A stretch of 42,026 bases of DNA from contig DATFNI010000181.1 in the NCBI GenBank assembly GCA_035266485.1, positions 1 to 42,026 on the forward strand, read 5' to 3'. Both the position numbers and the translations under genes were made by a program. This DNA is from Balneolales bacterium (GTDB lineage: Bacteria; Bacteroidota; Rhodothermia; Balneolales; DATFMH01). Position 1 is the stretch's first letter. Each line of letters starts with the position of its first letter. Shown here one piece after another: positions 26,012 to 36,511 of this stretch. The notes under the pieces are model-generated. The model made no database searches and was not told the origin of the DNA. It saw only the letters and a list, made by a program, of their open reading frames with translations.

Positions 26012-27205
26012 TTACTGTTTATTGCTCAAAATTGATGCGATGCCGTAAATTTTGCTGAATGCCCTGGCTTCTTCGCCATTCCAGAGCTGGCTGCTCTCGC
26101 CATACTGAGCCTTGCCGTTCATCAGCGAGTTTGGCGACTCTACGCCAAGAGGAAATGCATTGCCTCTGTATAAATACAGATTCGTGGTTCCGTCTACACG
26201 TTCCTGAGTAGCATCCAGGAATGCCTCGATGTTACGCATGACCGGGTCGAAATACTGTGCTTCATGCAATAACATACCGTAATAGTCAGACAGGGTATCT
26301 TTAAGATGACGTTGCCATTTAGTCAGAATTTGTTTTTCAAGTTCGCGGTGTGCCGTATAAACCAGTGTGGCAACAGGGGCCTCAAAACCGATACGGCCTT
26401 TAATGCCGAGGATCGTGTCGCCGGTATGCATGCCGCGGCCAATCCCGTGTTCGACAGCCGCCTTTTTGATAGACTGTAATAAGTTAAGTGGTGTATCCGA
26501 TTCTCCGTTCACTGCAACAGGAAGTCCCTGTTCGAACGTAATGCTGAATTCTTCTGCTTCGTCATTAAAAAGATGGGGAGCCTTCAGTTCAGGAAACGCC
26601 TCGGGTGGCAGTGCCTTGTTTGGAGTCAGTGTTTCATAACCGCCAATCGTGGTGCCCCAGATACCGGCATTGATGGAATAAGGAGCTTTCGAACCGTCCC
26701 GATCCATCGGGACAAAACCCCCCTCTTTAAGAATCTTGATTTGCTGCTCCCGGGTGAACTTCTCCTCGCGGATAGGGGTGATGATCTGCATATCGGGATT
26801 GACCACGCGTAGCGCCACATCAAAACGAACCTGGTCGTTTCCGGCACCCGTAGAACCGTGAGCTACAGCATCAGCCCCGATATTTTTGGCATATTCGGCA
26901 ATGAGCATTGCCTGGATGAAGCGCTCGGCGCCAACGCTAAGAGGGTAGGTTCGGTCTCGTAAGACATTGCCCTTTATCAGATAAGCAATAATTTTAGAAT
27001 AAATCAGATCCGTACCATCGAGGGTGGCATGCGAATCGGCGCCCAGGGCAAGTGACTTTTCTTCGAGCTTGTCCTTTTGTTCGGAAGTCATGCCAAGGCA
27101 ATCCACGGTTACGGTGTGAACCTCGCAATCGTATTTCTTTTTCAGATACGGAACACAAAAACTGGTGTCTAAACCACCGCTAAATGCGAGAACAATCTTA
27201 TTCAT
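26012..27205 (-). CDS. argG: Argininosuccinate synthase
   Basis: 397 aa with AFSGGLDTS and HGSTGAGNDQVRF. Confidence 0.95.
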   Translation of the reverse strand: MNKIVLAFSGGLDTSFCVPYLKKKYDCEVHTVTVDCLGMTSEQKDKLEEKSLALGADSHATLDGTDLIYSKIIAYLIKGNVLRDRTYPLSVGAERFIQAMLIAEYAKNIGADAVAHGSTGAGNDQVRFDVALRVVNPDMQIITPIREEKFTREQQIKILKEGGFVPMDRDGSKAPYSINAGIWGTTIGGYETLTPNKALPPEAFPELKAPHLFNDEAEEFSITFEQGLPVAVNGESDTPLNLLQSIKKAAVEHGIGRGMHTGDTILGIKGRIGFEAPVATLVYTAHRELEKQILTKWQRHLKDTLSDYYGMLLHEAQYFDPVMRNIEAFLDATQERVDGTTNLYLYRGNAFPLGVESPNSLMNGKAQYGESSQLWNGEEARAFSKIYGIASILSNKQ

Positions 27206-27226
27206 AAATCGAAAACACTGGTTATT

Positions 27227-27264
27227 AAAACAAAAAAAGGCAGAACCGGGAAAGTTCTGCCTTT
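27227..27264 (-). terminator. Leader (attenuator) terminator 21 nt upstream of the argG start
   Basis: On the minus strand: AAAGGCAGAAC, loop UUUCCCG, GUUCUGCCUUU, then a U-run continuing as U7-G-U4 to 27227. Confidence 0.75.
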
Positions 27265-27295
27265 ATCTGAAATTCGAAAAATCTTTTACACGAAA

Positions 27296-27385
27296 TCACC
27301 TAATGGCATAGCTTTCCCTTCCGTTTGAAACTAACGGTCGCCGCCGGAGAGCTATGTTAACTGGATATGTAGGTAGTGATTTCAT
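27296..27385 (-). CDS. Candidate arginine leader peptide (29 aa)
   Basis: MKSLPTYPVNIALRRRPLVSNGRESYAIR*. Codons 14-16 are CGG CGG CGA (27346-27338). There are two further AGG codons, one of them the last sense codon. The ORF overlaps the anti-antiterminator and antiterminator segments. Confidence 0.6.
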   Translation of the reverse strand: MKSLPTYPVNIALRRRPLVSNGRESYAIR

Positions 27386-27799
27386 TTGTTTCAAGGTTAA
27401 GAAATTAATCTCTAACAATGCAACTATTATTCAAAAAAAAAGTGAAAAAATGTAAAATGATACTATTCAACGATTTTATTCATGATAACGGCCATAATAA
27501 ACAGAAGAGTATAAGCTGGAAGCGCTTTTCCAAAAAATAAAATTCATCCCCCTGAAATAAAGATGATATACAATGAAGAGTAATAGGTAAAAAATGTACG
27601 ATAGGCAGATGGTTTATTGACAAAAAAATATGATTTCGCTGTTTGAAAGTGTGTGATAAGTTTTATTATTGAATAAAGCGTGAAGATTCCGGGAATCATC
27701 ATTTGAATGATATTGGTTTTATGGCTAACATCCCCGGATATTTTATCCCGAAGGTACCAGGAATCCTTTAGCGGATTCCATAGATATAAATCAAGGTTA

Positions 27800-29209
27800 A
27801 TGCGGATTCTCAAATTTGGCGGTTCTTCAGTCGGAACCCCCGAAGCAATAAAAAAAGTCGTCTCGATTATAGAAGGAAAGCAAAAGCAGGATTCCGTGGC
27901 CGTTGTTGTGTCTGCTTTTCGTGGTGTCACCGATTCGTTGCTGCGCGGTGCGGAACTGGCGGCATCCGGTTCATCTGAATACGATGATCTCATTCATGAA
28001 CTGGAAGAGCGGCATATCGATGTCATCCGTGAATGCATTTCTGTCTACCGGCAGAGCGAAGTGATTGCCCACTTCAAAATGACGCTTAATGAGCTGGAAG
28101 ATATCCTGACCGGCGTCTTCCTGGTCCGGGAGCTGACCCCGCGAACGATGGATTTCATTGTCAGTTTTGGTGAACGGTTCTCCGCATACATCCTTAGCTG
28201 GTGCCTGACAGACAATGGCGTGCCGGCCGGTTTCACCGATGCGCGTGAGTTTATTAAAACCGATATCCGATTCGGTTCTGCCCGCGTTTTGATGGAGCAG
28301 ACATACCGTAACATCCGCGATTATTTCAACACCAGAAAAGAGTTGCAGGTTGTCACCGGTTTCATCGCATCCACTGAGAAAGGGGAGACCTCGACCCTGG
28401 GCCGGGGCGGTTCGGATTATACGGCATCTATATTGGGTGCGGCTCTCGGGGTGGATCTGATCGAAATATGGACAGATGTCAACGGGTTGATGACTGCGGA
28501 TCCGCGGAAGGTCAAGCAGGCATTTACAATACCGGAGCTTTCTTATGAAGAAGCCATGGAGCTCTCTCACTTCGGGGCAAAGGTGATTTATCCGCCTACA
28601 CTACAACCTGCGATGAAGGCGGGCATCCCGATTGTCATCTGCAATACCTTCAATCCCGAATTTCCGGGTACACGAATCGAACAACAGCCCAAAGGGAAAA
28701 ACGGGATCATCAAAGGATTATCATCAATCGAAAATATCGCCCTGGTTACCGTCAGGGGGAGTGGAATGATCGGCGTCAGTGGTATTGCGGCACGTATTTT
28801 CAAGGCTCTGGCTGAGGCGGGTATCAATATTATAATGATTACCCAGGCATCTTCAGAGCATACCATCTGCCTGGCTATCCTCTCAAAATTTGCCAAAGAT
28901 GCACAGAGAGTGATTGAGGATGAGTTTCGAATTGAGATTATGGAAGAGAGTATCGACCGGGTGCTCATTGAAGATGATATGTGTATTATTGCTGTGGTCG
29001 GTGATCATATGCAACGCACGCCGGGTATAGCGGGACTTGTATTCCAGGCGATCGGGAAGAATGAGATTAATATCGTGGCTATCGCACAGGGATCGTCCGA
29101 ACGAAACATTTCTTTCATCGTCAACAAAAATGACGAGGCGGGCGCAATGACGGCACTCCATGACGCTTTTTTCTCTAAAGCGGTAGCTTCAGGCCGTACC
29201 AGTCACTAA
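27800..29209 (+). CDS. lysC: Aspartate kinase, monofunctional, with two C-terminal ACT domains
   Basis: I chose the start at 27800 (MRILKFGGSSVG), giving 469 aa. GRGGSDYTA is present, with ACT-like repeats at the C-terminus. The track start at 27707 is an unsupported extension. Confidence 0.85.
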   Translation: MRILKFGGSSVGTPEAIKKVVSIIEGKQKQDSVAVVVSAFRGVTDSLLRGAELAASGSSEYDDLIHELEERHIDVIRECISVYRQSEVIAHFKMTLNELEDILTGVFLVRELTPRTMDFIVSFGERFSAYILSWCLTDNGVPAGFTDAREFIKTDIRFGSARVLMEQTYRNIRDYFNTRKELQVVTGFIASTEKGETSTLGRGGSDYTASILGAALGVDLIEIWTDVNGLMTADPRKVKQAFTIPELSYEEAMELSHFGAKVIYPPTLQPAMKAGIPIVICNTFNPEFPGTRIEQQPKGKNGIIKGLSSIENIALVTVRGSGMIGVSGIAARIFKALAEAGINIIMITQASSEHTICLAILSKFAKDAQRVIEDEFRIEIMEESIDRVLIEDDMCIIAVVGDHMQRTPGIAGLVFQAIGKNEINIVAIAQGSSERNISFIVNKNDEAGAMTALHDAFFSKAVASGRTSH

Positions 29210-29213
29210 AAAA

Positions 29214-29254
29214 TTTGTAACTTGTCAATTAGTCAGGGGTCCGTGGTCAGTTGT
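29214..29254. repeat. G/T-rich heptamer array, left arm of an inverted pair
   Basis: TTGTAAC TTGTCAA TTAGTCA GGGGTCC GTGGTCA GTTGT. This is the reverse complement of the ACNACNG unit type. Confidence 0.65.
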
Positions 29255-29283
29255 TTTTTATTAGTAGTTTTTACAATGCAATC

Positions 29284-29339
29284 ACAACTGACAACTGACA
29301 ACTGACAACTGACAACGGACTACGGACAACCAACAACAT
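29284..29339. repeat. (ACAACNN)x8 heptamer array ending 1 nt before the thrB ATG
   Basis: ACAACTG x4, then ACAACGG, ACTACGG, ACAACCA, ACAACAT, then A and the ATG at 29341. Confidence 0.8.
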
Positions 29340-29340
29340 A

Positions 29341-30330
29341 ATGATATCAAATAACTTCAGCGAAGTGCGGGTTTTTGCCCCGGCAACTGTGGCGAATGTC
29401 GGTTGTGGCTTCGATGTGCTTGGCTTTGCCATTGATGAACCCGGTGATGAGATTGTGGCGAGAGTCCGCGAAGAAACCGGTGTCGTGATAACGGCTGTCC
29501 ACGGTGATGGAGGCAAACTTCCGTTACGGGTCGATCAAAACACCGCCGGAGTGGCGGCAACAGCCCTTCTTCAGGATGTGACAGACAATCTCTCGTTCGG
29601 CATCGAGCTGGAGCTCTATAAGAAAATGCCTTTGGGCAGCGGTCTTGGATCCAGTGCTGCGAGCGCTGTAGCGGCCGTTGTTGCCGTCAATCGGCTATTG
29701 GGTGATCCGTATGAACGCAAGGATCTGCTTCAGTTTGCGGTTGAAGGTGAGCGTGTAGCATGTGGCGCGGCTCATGCAGACAATGCCGGTGCATCCCTGT
29801 TGGGCGGATTTGTTTTTATCAGGAGCAACCACCCGATGGATGTATTTCCTATTGATTATCCGGAAGACCTCCACAGCACGGTGATCCATCCTCATATCGA
29901 GATTCGCACTGAGGACACCCGAAAGATCCTGCGGAAACAGATCCTGCTGGCCCGTGCCGTGGCACAATGGGGCAATGTCGGCGCTTTGGTAGCCGGGTTG
30001 ATGAAAGGTGATCATGACCTGATCGGACGTTCACTTCACGATGAGATCATCGAACCTATTCGTTCGGTGCTCATCCCCGGATTCAACCAGATGAAATCGG
30101 CTGCGATGGATGCCGGTGCTCTCGGATGCAGCATCTCCGGCTCCGGACCTTCGGTTTTTGCCCTGAGCCGGTCGAAAGAGGAGGCTCGGAAAATCGGTTC
30201 GGCCATGCAGCGGGCTGTCGCATCTGTTGGTCTGGATAGCGATGTTTATATATCTAAAATCAATAAAGCGGGCAGCACGGTGATCAGTGAAAAGCAAACC
30301 CAGGAATGGAATAGTGGAATGGTGGAATAA
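29341..30330 (+). CDS. thrB: Homoserine kinase
   Basis: 329 aa with the GHMP motif PLGSGLGSSAASAVAAV and an N-terminus ATVANVGCGFDVLG. Confidence 0.9.
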   Translation: MISNNFSEVRVFAPATVANVGCGFDVLGFAIDEPGDEIVARVREETGVVITAVHGDGGKLPLRVDQNTAGVAATALLQDVTDNLSFGIELELYKKMPLGSGLGSSAASAVAAVVAVNRLLGDPYERKDLLQFAVEGERVACGAAHADNAGASLLGGFVFIRSNHPMDVFPIDYPEDLHSTVIHPHIEIRTEDTRKILRKQILLARAVAQWGNVGALVAGLMKGDHDLIGRSLHDEIIEPIRSVLIPGFNQMKSAAMDAGALGCSISGSGPSVFALSRSKEEARKIGSAMQRAVASVGLDSDVYISKINKAGSTVISEKQTQEWNSGMVE

Positions 30331-30348
30331 TGGAAGACTGGATTTTAA
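30304..30348. repeat. (GGAATNNT) octamer array covering the thrB 3' end and stop
   Basis: GGAAT, GGAATAGT, GGAATGGT, GGAATAAT, GGAAGACT, GGATTTTA. The thrB TAA (30328-30) lies inside a unit. Confidence 0.7.
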
Positions 30349-30394
30349 ATACTCGAAGCAGGATGCTCTATAATTCGCAACCCGCAACTTTCCC

Positions 30395-30426
30395 ATCATT
30401 CCAATGTTCCAATATTCCAACATTCC
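30395..30426. repeat. (NNNNTTCC) octamer array, inverted partner, 7 nt before the thrC ATG
   Basis: ATCATTCC, AATGTTCC, AATATTCC, AACATTCC. Confidence 0.7.
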
Positions 30427-30433
30427 TTTAGTT

Positions 30434-31804
30434 ATGCGGTTTCTAAGCACAAATAATAAAAACCAACCGGTTTCTTTCTATGAGGCTGTCCTGCAGGGAT
30501 TGGCCGACGACGGCGGCCTGTATATGCCGGAAAACATCCCTCAACTTTCCGACGAGTTTTGGCAGGGTGTTGCTGACCTGTCTTTTAAAGAAATTGCGTT
30601 CAACGCAGCCCGCCCGTTTGTCCGGGATGAACTGAATGATATCGAATTGCAAGCAGTGATTGATGATGCGTTCTCCTTCGATGCGCCTCTGATCCCACTT
30701 GACGACAAGATATATGTGGCGGAGCTGTTCCACGGTCCCACCCTGGCGTTCAAGGATTTTGGAGCCCGCTTCATGTCCCGTGTCTTTTCGGCGATGAATA
30801 ATAAGCATGAAGAGGTGGCTGGCCAGAAAAGACAGCAGGATCTCAAAGAGCATGATGTGTATATTCTTGTAGCGACTTCAGGTGATACCGGCAGTGCCGT
30901 GGCTCATGGATTCCTGGCGGTGCCCGGTATCAAGGTCTGTCTCCTGTATCCAAGCGGCAAGGTCAGCAAGCTGCAGGAACAACAATTGACAACCGTGGGT
31001 GGTAACGTTACTGCAATCGAGGTTGACGGGACATTCGACGACTGTCAGAAGATGGTGAAACAGGCTTTCTCTGATGTAGATTTGAGGAGTGAAATTACAC
31101 TTAGTTCGGCCAACTCTATCAATTTTGCACGGTTGTTGCCGCAGTCGTTCTATTATATTTATTCTTATGCACAGCTAAAGAAATTAACAGATGAAAAGCC
31201 GGTTTTCTGTGTGCCGAGCGGAAACATGGGCAACCTGACGGGTGGATTGCTGGCCATGCAGATGGGCATGCCTGTGGATCAGTTTATCGTGGCTACGAAT
31301 GTGAATGACGTGGTTCCTGAATATTTAAGGAAGGGGGTCTTCACGCCGAGGCCATCCGTCCGTACGCTTTCCAATGCCATGGATGTCGGCAATCCGAGCA
31401 ACCTGGACCGGATACGGTTTCTTTTTGGCGATTCTATCTCGATGGCCAGGAAGCATTTATATGGAAGCTCATTTAACGACGATCAAACCCGGGATGCCAT
31501 CCAGTGGGTGCATCAACAGACAGGTTATGTGCTGGATCCACACACGGCTGTAGGCTATCTGGCAAGTGAAGAGTACCGTAAAACTACAGGCGATGAAGAA
31601 TCCTCGATCATTCTGGTGTCAACGGCACATCCCGCCAAATTCAGGGACACGGTCGAGTCGGTAATCGGGGAGTCGATCGCCATGCCGAAACAACTGCAGG
31701 AATGCATGGAGAAACCAAAACAAGCCATCCCCATGAATGGTGATTATTCGGCGTTGAGGAGTTTTCTCCTGGATCATCATGCAAAGGTCGAGGCCGAAAA
31801 TTGA
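30434..31804 (+). CDS. thrC: Threonine synthase
   Basis: I chose the start at 30434 (MRFLSTNNKNQPVSFYEAVLQGLADDGGLYMP). The PLP-lysine context FHGPTLAFKDFG is present. The track start at 30404 lies inside the repeat array. Confidence 0.9.
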   Translation: MRFLSTNNKNQPVSFYEAVLQGLADDGGLYMPENIPQLSDEFWQGVADLSFKEIAFNAARPFVRDELNDIELQAVIDDAFSFDAPLIPLDDKIYVAELFHGPTLAFKDFGARFMSRVFSAMNNKHEEVAGQKRQQDLKEHDVYILVATSGDTGSAVAHGFLAVPGIKVCLLYPSGKVSKLQEQQLTTVGGNVTAIEVDGTFDDCQKMVKQAFSDVDLRSEITLSSANSINFARLLPQSFYYIYSYAQLKKLTDEKPVFCVPSGNMGNLTGGLLAMQMGMPVDQFIVATNVNDVVPEYLRKGVFTPRPSVRTLSNAMDVGNPSNLDRIRFLFGDSISMARKHLYGSSFNDDQTRDAIQWVHQQTGYVLDPHTAVGYLASEEYRKTTGDEESSIILVSTAHPAKFRDTVESVIGESIAMPKQLQECMEKPKQAIPMNGDYSALRSFLLDHHAKVEAEN

Positions 31805-31845
31805 GAATCAGGAAGATCGATGACAACAACAAAATTCTTATTTAT

Positions 31846-31880
31846 GTTTCGGGTTTCTGGTTTAGGGTTTCGTGTTGAAT
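31846..31880. repeat. (GTTTNNG) heptamer array, left inverted repeat of the four-helix-bundle gene
   Basis: GTTTCGG, GTTTCTG, GTTTAGG, GTTTCGT, GTTGAAT. Confidence 0.7.
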
Positions 31881-31904
31881 CCGCCGATCCATAATTATAA
31901 TGCA

Positions 31905-32306
31905 ATGGCTACCATAAAACGTTTTGAAGATCTTGAGGTTTGGCAAATGGCCAGGGATATTTCTAAAGCGGTTTATGACCTTTATGCCCAAAATGATCCT
32001 TTTTCAAAAGACTATAAGCTAAAAGATCAGATTAATGGATCAAGTGGTTCTGTGATGGATAATATTGCCGAAGGTTTTGAAAGAGGCGGGAATAAGGAAT
32101 TTATCAATTTTCTTAGTATAGCAAAGGGCTCTTTGGGAGAAGTAAAATCGCAACTTTACAGGGCATATGATAGAGATTACGTATCTCAGGAAGTCCTTGA
32201 GAAAATGAAAATGCAATGTGATGAACGGGCTTCTAAAATTGGCAGATTTATTAACTATTTGAACCAATCAAAAATTCGTGGGAATAAGTTCAAAAATAGA
32301 AGTTGA
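31905..32306 (+). CDS. Four-helix-bundle protein (23S rRNA intervening-sequence protein / Avd-like family)
   Basis: 133 aa from the ATG at 31905. MATIKRFEDLEVWQMARD...INGSSGSVMDNIAEGFERGGNKEFINFLSIAKGSLGEVKSQL matches the family signature as I remember it. Confidence 0.8.
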   Translation: MATIKRFEDLEVWQMARDISKAVYDLYAQNDPFSKDYKLKDQINGSSGSVMDNIAEGFERGGNKEFINFLSIAKGSLGEVKSQLYRAYDRDYVSQEVLEKMKMQCDERASKIGRFINYLNQSKIRGNKFKNRS

Positions 32307-32307
32307 T

Positions 32308-32391
32308 CGAACCCGAAACCCGAAACTCTAAACTCTAAACTCTAAACTCTAAACTCTAAACTCTAAACTCTAAACTCTAAACTCTAAACAA
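32308..32391. repeat. Heptamer array, right inverted repeat, including a perfect (TAAACTC)x8 microsatellite
   Basis: CGAACCC, GAAACCC, GAAACTC, then TAAACTC x8 (32329-32384), then TAAACAA. GAAACCCGAAAC (32315-26) is the exact reverse complement of 31846-57. Confidence 0.85.
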
Positions 32392-32455
32392 ATTTATAAT
32401 CACGATTAATTGATTCTGTTTCAGCAGGATTGCTTGATCATGTATTGACATACAG

Positions 32456-33640
32456 ATGAAAGATAAACTTGACGAGATACGATCCAGGCTGGATTCTATC
32501 GATAAGACGATTATTGATGCTCTTGCTGAACGTCAAAAGGCTGTTCAGCAGGTTTTTTCGCTGAAAGCAGAGAACTCCGGCCGGTTACGGGATTATCAGC
32601 GTGAGGAGCAGATCCTCTCCGAAATTGGAGACATCGCGCGTAAAGCGGGACTGGATCGTTACTTCGCAGAGCAGATATTCAGGGAGATCATCAATCACTC
32701 TGTGCGCACTCAGACTCATGCTTTGATGGACTACCATAATCCATCCCGTTCTGACAAGACGATTCGAGTTGCATACCAGGGAACTGAGGGCGCGTTTAGT
32801 CACGTTGCAACACAACATCATTTCGGTGACCGGTACGCAGACATCACTAGCTACGGCTATGACACGTTTCAGGAAGCCGGTGAAGCGGTTGAAAATGGTG
32901 ATGTGGATGTGGCCATCCTGCCGATCGAGAATACGACTGCGGGATCTATTAATGAAACATATGATCTTTTGGGAAGCAGCTCCCTGGTGATTGTGGGTGA
33001 AGAAGTATTGCGTATCCGTCATTGTCTGCTGGCGCTGGAACCCGTTCCTATCGAGCGCATTCGTCGCATTATCTCGCATCCTCAGGCTTTGGCGCAGTGC
33101 AGCCGGTTTTTGTCGAAGCTGACACATTGCCACGTAGAATCATACCTCGACACTGCCCTGGCAGCACGTAAAGTGCAGGAAGACGGGGATCTCTCGCTGG
33201 CGGCCATCGCCGGTGCCCAGGCTGCCGAACAGTATGGGCTGCATATCATTGAACGCGACATCGCGAACCAGGATCTGAACTTTACGCGATTTGTGATCGT
33301 GGCTCCTGAACCGGTTTATTGTGATCCGCAGATACCGTGTAAGACATCGCTTGTAATGGCCACCAGCCATGAGAAGGGTGCCTTGATTGACTGCCTTCGT
33401 GTGCTGGGTGACCATGGCATCAACATGACAAAGCTGGAGTCCCGGCCACGCCCCAATGTTCCCTGGCAATACCTGTTTTACCTTGATATTGAGGGTAATA
33501 CCCAGGATGAGAATGTAGAAGAGGCATTGAACGAACTGAAGAAAGAGGCAAGCTTTGTTAAGATCCTGGGCTGCTACCCAATCCAGCCAAATAGTGATGA
33601 AGTGGCTAAGAAAACGGGAAATAAAGGAATAAAGGAATAA
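32456..33640 (+). CDS. pheA: Bifunctional chorismate mutase / prephenate dehydratase (P-protein)
   Basis: 394 aa. The N-terminal CM helix is LDEIRSRLDSIDKTIIDALAERQ. The PDT domain has VAYQGTEGAFSH and ENTTAGSI. The ACT domain has GALIDCLRVLGDHGINMTKLESRP. Confidence 0.9.
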   Translation: MKDKLDEIRSRLDSIDKTIIDALAERQKAVQQVFSLKAENSGRLRDYQREEQILSEIGDIARKAGLDRYFAEQIFREIINHSVRTQTHALMDYHNPSRSDKTIRVAYQGTEGAFSHVATQHHFGDRYADITSYGYDTFQEAGEAVENGDVDVAILPIENTTAGSINETYDLLGSSSLVIVGEEVLRIRHCLLALEPVPIERIRRIISHPQALAQCSRFLSKLTHCHVESYLDTALAARKVQEDGDLSLAAIAGAQAAEQYGLHIIERDIANQDLNFTRFVIVAPEPVYCDPQIPCKTSLVMATSHEKGALIDCLRVLGDHGINMTKLESRPRPNVPWQYLFYLDIEGNTQDENVEEALNELKKEASFVKILGCYPIQPNSDEVAKKTGNKGIKE

Positions 33641-33649
33641 GGGAATTGA
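33617..33649. repeat. (GGAATNNN) array covering the pheA 3' end and stop
   Basis: GGAAATAAA, GGAATAAA, GGAATAAG, GGAATTGA. The pheA TAA (33638-40) lies inside a unit. Confidence 0.65.
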
Positions 33650-33719
33650 AGCTGGTGCACGGTACAGGGGTAGACGTCTGGACAAGCCTGTTTGCTTGGG
33701 ATTTGCTGTACTCTAATTG

Positions 33720-33767
33720 AAAACTGACAACGAACAACTAACAACTAGAAACGAACAACTAACGACG
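33720..33767. repeat. (ACAACNN)-type heptamer array ending flush with the aminotransferase ATG
   Basis: AAAACTG, ACAACGA, ACAACTA, ACAACTA, GAAACGA, ACAACTA, ACGACG, then the ATG at 33768. Confidence 0.75.
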
Positions 33768-34952
33768 ATGGGCACATTCGAATTTAATCGTATCAATCGT
33801 TTACCCCCCTATGCTTTTGCCGTAACAAATGAGCTGAAGATGCAGGCACGACGGGCGGGCGAGGACATCGTGGATATGAGTATGGGCAACCCCGATCAGC
33901 CTACACCAGAGCCTATTGTCGAAAAACTGATAGAAGCGGTTCATAACAGCCGCAACCACCGATACTCAGTCTCCCGTGGGATCTATAAACTTCGCGTGGC
34001 GATATCAGACTGGTACAAGCGCAGATACGACGTTGACATTGATCCGCAGAGTGAGGCCATCGTCACAATGGGATCAAAAGAAGGCCTTGCTCACCTTGTG
34101 CTCAGTATCATCGATCAGGGAGATATCGTGTTATGTCCGGATCCGACCTATCCCATCCATGCCTATTCGGTCGTCATTGCGGGCGGTGATCTGAGGCGAG
34201 TCCCTTTATTTCAGGGGGATGACTTTTTCGAACGTCTCGAGGAAGCCTACAACCAAAGCTGGCCGCGACCGAAACTGATGATTCTGAATTTCCCACACAA
34301 CCCTACTACTGAGGTTGTAGATCTCGATTTCTTCCAAAAAGTCGTTGATTTTGCGCTGGAAAGGAATGTACTCGTCATTCACGACCTGGCGTACGCCGAT
34401 TTGTGTTTTGATGGCTACCAGGCTCCGAGTATGCTGCAGATACCCGAAGCACGAAAGATTGCCGTGGAAACATTTACACTCTCCAAAAGCTACAATATGC
34501 CGGGATGGCGCGTCGGTTTTTGCGTGGGTAACCAGGATCTGATCGCTGCACTGACCCGTATGAAGAGCTATCTTGATTATGGAATATTTCAGCCCATACA
34601 AATTGCCTCGATCGAGGCCTTAAATAATGGTGATCAATTCCAGGAGGAAGTGACTGAGATCTACAAGGTGCGCCGGGATGTTCTTGTTGACTCATTGAAT
34701 AACATTGGCTGGGAGGTCATCAAACCCAAAGCCACAATGTTTGTATGGGGGAGAATACCTGAACAGTACAGAAAGATGGGCTCCATGGAATTTTCCAAGT
34801 TCCTGCTCAAGGAGGGGAAAGTGGCTGTGTCACCCGGTATTGGATTTGGCAATTATGGCGACGAGCACGTCCGTTTTGCACTAATTGAAAATGAACAGCG
34901 TATTCGGCAGGCGGTCAGGGGAATTAAAAAAGCCTTTGCGAACAATTCGTAG
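33768..34952 (+). CDS. Class I/II PLP-dependent aminotransferase (AspC/AlaT family; possibly aromatic or prephenate aminotransferase given pheA linkage)
   Basis: 394 aa from the ATG at 33768, starting [19 protein letters not shown]. It has MGNPD, NFPHNPT and the PLP-lysine context [14 protein letters not shown]. Confidence 0.85.
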
Positions 34953-35245
34953 GGCTTGTTTCTTTTTTGTAGAGGGTGATCCTACCACGAGTCAAAAAGT
35001 ACCTGATAAATGGAGCTAAAGCTTATGCTTATCTGCTTTCTTATTCCGTCAGCTAAAGCAGACGGCAATCGATATGCATTTATTACTACGGCGACGGGTT
35101 TTGCCAACTGAAGAAGAGAAGAATCTAAGAAATAGGGCCTTCGACCCATTTTCTCCACGAGAAATCCCACGTTAAATAAAAAAGACACCAAAGTCCTTCT
35201 CCCTGTCCATGGAGAGCGGTAACCCTCAAACACACTTCGTTTAAA

Positions 35246-36511
35246 TCACATCACCGGAGCGATGAGCTTGTGAATTTGATCAAGAGACAGGTTTCTCTCT
35301 TCACTTTTCTCCATGTCGCGCAGCGTGAACTCTCCGGTTTCCAGTTCGTTGTCGCCTATGATGATAGAAAACCGGGCATTTTCTCGGTTGGCATCTTTCA
35401 TCTGGGCTTTGATGGATCGTCCGGCATAATCCATGGTGCAGGATAACCCTTTTTGACGAAATTCATGAAGATGTGAGAGAGCCCAGTTTCGCGCCTTCTC
35501 ACCAATGGTCACCAGGTACACATCGACAGCCGGTTCTGAGCCTAATTCGATACCCAGGGCATCACATGCTATGAAGAGCCGTTCGATACCGGCAGCAAAA
35601 CCAACGGCAGGCGTAGATGGACCACCGAGCTCTTCAATCAATAGATCATAGCGACCTCCAGCCCCCAAGGCGTCCTGTCCACCCAAGTCCGGACTGATCA
35701 ATTCGAATGCGGTTTTGGTGTAGTAATCGAGTCCGCGTACCAGCCGGGGATCGACTTCATAAGTAATGCCTAAACCCGCCAAATACCGCTTCACCAGATC
35801 GAAGTGTTCCAGGCATTCTTCATTCAGATAATCGGTAATGACCGGTGCATCTTCAACGATCGGGCGATCCTGTTCTTCCTTCGAATCGAGGATGCGCATC
35901 GGGTTGGTCTCGAAACGTTGCTGCGATACTTTCGATAATTTGGAAAGATTGGGATGCAGATAATCTTGCAGCACTTCTTTATATCTCTGCCGGCTTTCAG
36001 GATCCCCGACAGAATTTATCTTCAAAGTGAAATTGCGAATACCGACTTGCCGGTAAACATCCATCATAAATGCGATGACATCTACGTCGGCTGCCGGGTT
36101 CGGACTTCCGATGATTTCAGCACCAAACTGATGAAACTGGCGTTGACGACCTTTTTGTGGGCGTTCTGCGCGAAACATGGGACCAATATAGAATAATTGC
36201 TGGGTGCCGCCCCGTTGTTTGAGATTATGCTCGATATAAGCCCGGCTGACAGGAGCGGTTCCTTCCGGTCGGAGTACATAATGGTCATCACCGCGATCAA
36301 AGGCGAACATTTCTTTCGAAACGATATCCGTAAGCTGACCGACCCCGCGTGCAATCAGTTCTGTCTGCTCCATGATGGGAGTTCGTATTTCCCGAAAATG
36401 AAACCGCCGGGCGGTGTCCCTGATCAAAAGTTCAAGTTGTTGCCATTTTTCGACCTCGCCAGGTAATATGTCAACCATTCCGGTGTGGGTCGTAAAAAGG
36501 GGTTTTGCCAT
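35246..36511 (-). CDS. hisS: Histidine--tRNA ligase
   Basis: 421 aa with class II motifs YVLRPEGTAP, FRAERPQKGRQRQFHQ and GGGRYD-like GAGGRYD. Confidence 0.95.
   Translation of the reverse strand: MAKPLFTTHTGMVDILPGEVEKWQQLELLIRDTARRFHFREIRTPIMEQTELIARGVGQLTDIVSKEMFAFDRGDDHYVLRPEGTAPVSRAYIEHNLKQRGGTQQLFYIGPMFRAERPQKGRQRQFHQFGAEIIGSPNPAADVDVIAFMMDVYRQVGIRNFTLKINSVGDPESRQRYKEVLQDYLHPNLSKLSKVSQQRFETNPMRILDSKEEQDRPIVEDAPVITDYLNEECLEHFDLVKRYLAGLGITYEVDPRLVRGLDYYTKTAFELISPDLGGQDALGAGGRYDLLIEELGGPSTPAVGFAAGIERLFIACDALGIELGSEPAVDVYLVTIGEKARNWALSHLHEFRQKGLSCTMDYAGRSIKAQMKDANRENARFSIIIGDNELETGEFTLRDMEKSEERNLSLDQIHKLIAPVM

Follow-up and report, generated by a model that had tools for sequence, protein, structure and literature searches.

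The 651-nt spacer between thrC and pheA in contig DATFNI010000181.1 of Balneolales bacterium assembly GCA_035266485.1, which we analysed as a window of 42,026 nucleotides, contains an intact 133-amino-acid open reading frame (ORF; 31905-32306, plus strand) that encodes a four-helix-bundle protein of family PF05635 and lies between two inverted arrays of heptamers. The best explanation, to which we give a probability of about 0.6, is that this is a guest cassette of the intervening-sequence (IVS) type in the spacer of an amino-acid operon, and that the gene and its flanking arrays (hereafter the arms) are inherited, and have probably moved, as a unit. That unit would consist of a G/T-rich heptamer array on the 5' side, a short leader, the four-helix-bundle gene, and an inverted A/C-rich array abutting the stop codon on the 3' side. 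Features of the locus are listed in Table 1. The assembly (G000 below) is of 4.5 Mb in 581 contigs with 46% G+C.

In profile searches the protein scores 115.3 bits against PF05635 (cut-off 33.8) and 109.3 bits against TIGR02436 (cut-off 24), and an AlphaFold2 model built with 35 aligned homologs has four long helices, with a predicted local distance difference test score (pLDDT) of 92 and a predicted template modelling score (pTM) of 0.83. The top structural matches found by Foldseek are 2GSC (template modelling score, TM, 0.77-0.91) and 2RLD (TM 0.72-0.87), both structures of five chains. These are followed by the Avd entry 4DWL and by entries for the reverse transcriptase-RNA complex of diversity-generating retroelements (DGRs), at TM 0.7-0.86 and 10-13% identity. 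The cassette protein is Avd-like and probably pentameric. Coordinates, profiles and structural matches agree with the first-pass annotation, which had described a 23S-IVS/Avd-like four-helix-bundle gene of 133 residues between thrC and pheA. PADLOC gave no defence-system match for the locus, and Rfam no known RNA family in positions 27000-36000 of the window or around the other 11 paralogs in the genome.

Both arms are confirmed by the sequence and by Tandem Repeats Finder (TRF), which reports the left array at 31846-31876 (period 7, 4.4 copies) and the right array at 32323-32389 (9.6 copies, 100% matches); the latter includes the (TAAACTC)x8 tract that had been noticed initially. Segments GTTTCGGGTTTC (31846-57) and GAAACCCGAAAC (32315-26) are perfect reverse complements, as had been claimed, and the complementarity, first put at about 18 bp, was computed as 17 nt with one mismatch. 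In the minimum free energy (MFE) fold of 31830-32400 a stem of ~24 pairs, G-U pairs included, closes around the entire ORF, and the arm-arm duplex has an energy of -28.8 kcal/mol compared with -17.2 +/- 3.3 in shuffled sequences, none of 500 of which reached it. To this extent the proposal that the ORF sits in the loop of a long-range stem stands, and the element has, as IVSs do, terminal inverted repeats able to form a stem that encloses it. The 3' arm begins 1 nt past the stop codon. The (TAAACTC)x8 tract, whose unit on the other strand is GTTTAGA, is unpaired in the MFE fold and missing from the related genome G003 described below, and is probably a recent one-sided expansion. The inverted-flank score at this locus is 14, which puts it near the 99th percentile of the small ORFs in the genome (n = 700), and most of the small ORFs that score 14 or more are paralogs of this gene.

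There are 12 PF05635 copies in the assembly. With flanks counted as present at a score of at least 12, inverted flanks are found in 8 of the 12, compared with ~5 of 690 other small ORFs. Twelve of the 700 small ORFs reach this score, and they include seven PF05635 paralogs, two PDDEXK_3 genes and one transposase of the type associated with repetitive extragenic palindromic (REP) sequences (RAYT). The eight armed paralogs differ in their units, which are GTGAATG, TAGATTT, GTCATTC, AATTTTG, TGGAATA, GTACTTA, the GTTTCGG of this locus and, in one case, a 25-bp perfect non-tandem repeat; arms of the GTTT type are absent from all 11 of the other paralogs. The check proposed with the first-pass annotation, whether other copies in the genome are flanked by arrays, is thus answered positively, and the idea survives the refutation test tied to it.

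We examined arms outside this genome in 80 homologous loci, with proteins at 51-64% identity, from named Bacteroidota genomes (Chitinophagaceae, Prolixibacteraceae, Flavobacteriaceae, Cyclobacteriaceae and others), of which 78 were usable for arm scoring. Inverted flanks are present in 57 of the 78, compared with none of 144 control windows placed 1.2 kb away within those loci (Fisher p about 1e-35), and in 47 of 70 loci of an independent metagenome set. The association of arms and gene is beyond chance, and the likeness to the stem-flanked ORF of 23S rRNA intervening sequences, which had been pointed out for this one locus, reflects a real architecture that recurs in paralogs and homologs alike. 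The arm unit follows the protein clade: GTTTnnnGTTT lies upstream in 39 of the 78 homologs and AAACnnnAAAC downstream in 41, with the reverse arrangement seen in 5 and 0. The polarity of the arms (GTTT upstream, AAAC downstream) is 41:2 in homologs of this clade. In the neighbouring clade L017-L021, whose proteins are at 40-44% identity, the units are GGTGTTA.

In the homologous cassettes the median distance is 9 nt from the stop codon to the start of the 3' arm and 26 nt from the end of the 5' arm to the ATG. Of the 78 leaders, 16 contain the -7 motif of Bacteroidota, TAnnTTTG, against an expectation of 6.8, with a cluster at -24 in one subgroup; the present copy lacks the motif. At least 60 distinct pairs of flanking genes are represented among the 80 homologs, which share the GTTT-type arms, as would be looked for in a mobile element. 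In 57 of the 80 the gene and its two neighbours all point the same way, and in only 2 are both neighbours antisense to it.

Among the genomes compared, thrC-pheA synteny is restricted to the family of G000, and within it the orthologous site is polymorphic for presence of the cassette, a second property of mobile elements. In G003, whose PheA is 93% identical, the same cassette is present with GTTTCGA/GTTTCGG arms, and its gene is colinear and 77% identical, albeit broken by a single TAA at codon 92. Comparison of the two orthologs gives a nonsynonymous divergence (dN) of 0.14 with synonymous sites saturated (proportion of synonymous differences, pS, 0.67), from which we infer that the gene was under purifying selection for most of the divergence of G000 and G003. 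The arms are the best-conserved part of spacers that are otherwise unalignable; the GTTT core of all four 5' units is retained in G003, and the remaining three positions drift. G003 is the sole relative with the gene at this site, and the gene there is also armed.

The other relatives have spacers that are empty or differently filled, which fits insertion, and which answers a further question raised with the first-pass annotation. The spacer of G002 (PheA 98.7% identical) is 210 nt long and contains a REP-like hairpin, with neither gene nor heptamers. A small palindrome in this spacer, CCCCCTTTGCCAAGGGGG (L026 1385-1410), matches G000 sites on contigs C365, C165, C568 and C236 and seems to be a REP-like element that is dispersed in the genus. 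The spacer of the congener G001 is ~135 nt and is occupied by a perfect gene-less hairpin, AGAGATTGACAGAAGAAAGATG / CATCTTTCTTCTGTCAATCT, followed by (TCAATCT TCAATTT)x4, which reaches the pheA ATG. A break in the assembly falls within this TCAATYT array (L135 at the end of contig C85 and L028 at the start of contig C143). The spacers of G004-G006, which belong to other genera, are at most ~90 nt and are without a four-helix-bundle gene. No match was found in metagenome contigs to an exact pattern taken from the start of pheA, and a metagenome protein search gave no relative above 62% identity.

We picture the history and behaviour of the cassette as follows. It would have entered the thrC-pheA spacer in an ancestor of the G000 species and G003, after the genus had split from relatives whose spacer cannot hold the gene, and it would have been inserted in sense orientation between co-transcribed genes. 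A scan of the cassette for sigma-70 promoters and terminators gave nothing convincing, so transcription would be by read-through, and the gene expressed together with the operon. The two arrays could then pair in the transcript in any of several registers, enclosing the ORF. By analogy with the rRNA IVSs of Coxiella and Leptospira, the resulting stem is a likely substrate for RNase III, the gene for which is present in G000, and cleavage would separate the RNA of the cassette from that of the operon, so that the host suffers less damage. The four-helix bundle is the sole ORF of the cassette; its product is most likely a nucleic-acid-binding protein, for which the heptamer arrays of the cassette itself are the obvious candidate target.

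Several observations weigh against this interpretation. The cassette is missing from G002, the closest relative by PheA, which requires loss or replacement there. No relative above 64% identity was found outside the genus in named genomes and metagenomes, and we identified no movement enzyme, no target-site duplication and no recent second copy, the cassette being single-copy in G000. (A candidate duplication, ATTTAT on both sides, was discarded as too short and AT-rich.) The 571-nt fold of the whole region is no more stable than shuffled sequences (z -1.28). The sense and antisense arm duplexes are equally stable in the 78 loci (41 vs 36, p 0.35); nothing therefore marks the sense RNA as the selected form, and duplex energy does not separate a role in RNA from one in DNA. 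Mirrored order of the units beats shuffled order weakly (mean z 0.38; 44 vs 26 loci; p 0.013) and is individually significant in 5 of 70 loci. We considered a single exact conserved stem and found it unsupported on this count; since the effect of unit order is weak, conservation concerns a pair of inverted arrays built from one type of unit, able to pair in several registers, an arrangement that fits a loose-register RNA stem and a pair of protein-binding arrays alike. Finally, there are ~276 arrays of period 7-8 in G000, and these are common without any gene, neighbouring operon junctions included.

The main rival explanation is that the arrays are binding sites, in DNA or RNA, for the multimeric protein that the cassette itself encodes, which would recognise a heptamer core (GTTT here) for autoregulation or for maintenance of the gene, with no part played by RNase III excision. 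We regard this as possible, though clearly the less probable account, and the two can coexist. It is favoured by the pattern of conservation in the arms, in which the 4-nt core is clade-specific and its polarity fixed as the other three positions drift, and in which the identity of the unit outweighs an exact mirrored stem. Tandem units also suit a multimer, given the five chains of 2GSC and 2RLD and the Avd pentamer that holds RNA in the DGR ribonucleoprotein. A further point comes from L018 (G032) and L024 (G040), from two other genera, which occupy one conserved genomic site with both flanking genes homologous. The cassette proteins are 47% identical and the leaders have GTAAGGAAT in common, and the arm units are GGTGTTA and GTACTnn respectively; both arms have switched unit together, which indicates that arms evolve in concert. 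The event at this site may have been a concerted turnover of both arms or a replacement of the cassette. Against recognition by the protein, joint inheritance of gene and arms would yield the same correlation of clade and unit, and on single-stranded RNA the recognised strand would be present in one arm only.

A second alternative is that arrays are a general feature of operon junctions, concerned, for example, with translational coupling or unstructured leaders, and that the gene landed in the loop of a hairpin that already existed. Gene-less inverted arrays are indeed present at the lysC-thrB and thrB-thrC junctions of the same operon, and the G001 thrC-pheA spacer holds the gene-less hairpin described above. 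At lysC-thrB and thrB-thrC one finds the G/T-rich arm on or after the stop codon and the A/C-rich one directly against the start that follows, and the pheA-aminotransferase junction has unpaired arrays; arrays are therefore not exclusive to the cassette. The same polarity is seen genome-wide in arrays between co-directional genes, albeit from a count that rests on crude gene calls: of the 48 arrays that lie closer to the downstream start, 38 have more C than G (38:10), and of the 66 closer to the upstream stop, 41 have more G than C (41:25; Fisher p 1e-5). The cassette arms follow this rule. The polarity suggests an RNA-level or translation-related role for arrays generally, perhaps that of providing unstructured leaders, since the phylum lacks Shine-Dalgarno sites. 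There are also 32 mostly solitary AATTTTG/CAAAATT arrays (~4.6 units each) beside gene ends, for example at C183:18651-18683, C215:406-437 and C293:4960-4991. Nevertheless, the GTTT-core unit tracks the protein clade through at least 60 unrelated contexts in many families and is almost unique in G000, paralogs within G000 bear different units, and so few of the other small ORFs have inverted flanks (5 of ~690) that we think a pre-existing junction hairpin improbable as the source of the arms.

That the gene is the DGR accessory protein Avd, as its fold might suggest, is virtually excluded by its biosynthetic neighbours thrC and pheA, by the presence of the sole reverse transcriptase of the assembly (RVT_1) on a contig, C157, that has no paralog, and by the lack of a PADLOC match.

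Table 1. Positions in the window of the cassette, its host genes and the neighbouring gene-less arrays.
Feature	Position	Strand	Evidence
Gene-less inverted heptamer arrays at the aspartokinase (lysC)-thrB junction; an ACAACTG array abuts the thrB ATG	29214-29339	+	
Gene-less inverted octamer arrays TGGAATAG / ATTCCAAT, across the thrB stop and thrC start	30304-30426	+	
thrC (threonine synthase), upstream host gene	30404-31804	+	Pfam Thr_synth_N, PALP, THR4_C
Spacer of 41 nt, thrC stop codon to 5' arm	31805-31845	+	Sequence; alignable with G003 only at the arm-proximal CTTATT
5' arm GTTTCGG GTTTCTG GTTTAGG GTTTCGT, G/T-rich and C-poor	31846-31873	+	Sequence, TRF, complementarity
Leader of 31 nt, 5' arm to ATG, without consensus promoter or TAnnTTTG motif	31874-31904	+	Sequence, promoter scan
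Four-helix-bundle gene, 133 aa, PF05635/TIGR02436, intact	31905-32306	+	Profiles, AlphaFold2, Foldseek, dN
3' arm CGAACCC GAAACCC GAAACTC, A/C-rich and G-poor, complementary to 5' arm	32308-32328	+	
Perfect (TAAACTC)x8 plus partial TAAAC microsatellite, extending the 3' array	32329-32389	+	TRF, fold
pheA (chorismate mutase / prephenate dehydratase), downstream host gene	32456-33640	+	Pfam CM_2, PDT, ACT

Some other features of the operon and the genome are of note. The ATG that gives the longest thrC ORF (30404) lies inside the ATTCCAAT octamer array, and because of this the real start may, more likely, be the ATG at 30434, just past the array. The four-helix-bundle paralog on contig C195 has arms built of the TGGAATAG type of unit seen at thrB-thrC, and the AATTTTG unit of the solitary arrays also forms the arms of the paralog at C316:274-627. 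By eye, the arm units of ~4 of the 12 paralogs resemble abundant gene-less families (AATTTTG of C316 and TGGAATA of C195 among them), a resemblance that we have not used as evidence. At C568:2877-3167 there is a decayed cassette in which inverted GAAGTACTTA-type arms surround ~220 nt with only a remnant start, MDNKEFG; this remnant resembles a broken paralog at C17:3284-3538, the arm unit is common to both, and the two may descend from one cassette type.

Genes of other families are flanked by repeats as well. Three intact PDDEXK_3 / GxxExxY genes (PF13366), at C168:432-815, C364:1100-1507 (minus strand) and C551:1255-1647, are each bracketed by their own repeat arrays, with units of the ACGCGGAT type for example, which are inverted at C168 and C364 and of direct or hairpin type at C551; a fourth copy, on C450, is broken. 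The arrangement resembles that of the PF05635 cassettes, as if PDDEXK_3 were a second family of cargo. At C459:7213-7659 an IS200-like Y1 transposase of the RAYT type lies between GC-rich REP-like hairpins, AACCCGCCTGAGCGGGTT, in the classical REP/RAYT layout.

These findings bear on the role of PF05635, a very large family that came to light within rRNA intervening sequences and more than 570 relatives of which were matched in each of two collections, and on the origin of those sequences. The elements in rRNA may represent one special form of a broader class, consisting of a gene with its own inverted heptamer arms, clade-specific units, and polar insertion between co-directional genes, a view that predicts RNase III-dependent ends within the arms and binding of each protein to its cognate array. 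An orphan protein family is thereby tied to the unexplained heptamer repeats of bacterial intergenic regions. Extending the argument further, and with a good deal of doubt, we can imagine that four-helix-bundle IVS proteins read their own heptamer arrays in a sequence-specific way, that gene and arms are an autonomous selfish unit that inserts sense-wise between co-transcribed genes and leaves the RNA by excision, which lets the host operon or rRNA survive, that decay of such units leaves the gene-less arrays and hairpins of Bacteroidota operons and perhaps the heptamer repeats of other phyla, and that PDDEXK_3 (GxxExxY) is a second cargo. There are practical consequences for annotation, in that such cassettes split operons, as in thrC-pheA here, and arrays break assemblies; several G000 contigs begin with arrays, and the G001 pheA contig does so too.

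The closest parallels are the rRNA IVSs of Coxiella burnetii and Leptospira. The Coxiella IVS combines an S23p ORF, preceded by tandem heptamers, with a 28-bp terminal stem that RNase III cuts (PMC4990558). The cassette shares with these elements (PMC4990558) the PF05635/'S23p' family, an ORF enclosed by a long stem of terminal inverted repeats, tandem heptamers adjoining the ORF, a length of a few hundred nucleotides, and a proposed horizontal acquisition. It differs in lying in the thrC-pheA mRNA spacer instead of helix 45 or 25 of 23S rRNA, and none of the 12 G000 copies has rRNA nearby, such that insertion into 23S rRNA, which defines an IVS, does not apply. RNase III excision is proven for the rRNA elements and is drawn by analogy for the cassette, whose arms are arrays of degenerate units with a one-sided microsatellite expansion. 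A full-text literature search returned papers on rRNA IVSs and on heptameric repeats (PMC4692102), and no description of such cassettes outside rRNA.

The protein resembles Avd (PDB 4DWL, 8UB7) in its four-helix-bundle fold and in having solved relatives that are pentameric, and Avd binds structured RNA; identity is ~11%, however, and the cassette has no nearby reverse transcriptase and no template or variable repeats. REP/RAYT systems (REPINs, paired REP elements) likewise place one small gene between inverted repeats, with gene-less hairpins of similar repeats scattered intergenically. RAYT is a Y1 transposase of known chemistry, whereas the four-helix bundle has no known catalytic site; the cargo here is PF05635 and not a Y1 (IS200-like) enzyme, and the arms are tandem heptamers that differ between paralogs and do not constitute one genome-wide family. 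The heptameric repeats of cyanobacteria (short tandemly repeated repetitive sequences, STRR) and the GGGNATC repeats of Xanthomonas and Nostoc (PMC4692102) are also tandem units of 7 nt that are transcribed and enriched between co-directional ORFs near stops and starts, although those reports concern arrays alone, read as G-quadruplexes, with no gene between inverted arrays. The GxxExxY / PDDEXK_3 genes (PF13366) of this same genome are alike in being bracketed by their own arrays, in all three intact copies, and unlike in encoding a PD-(D/E)XK nuclease fold, which suggests that one format of cassette serves two or more sorts of cargo.

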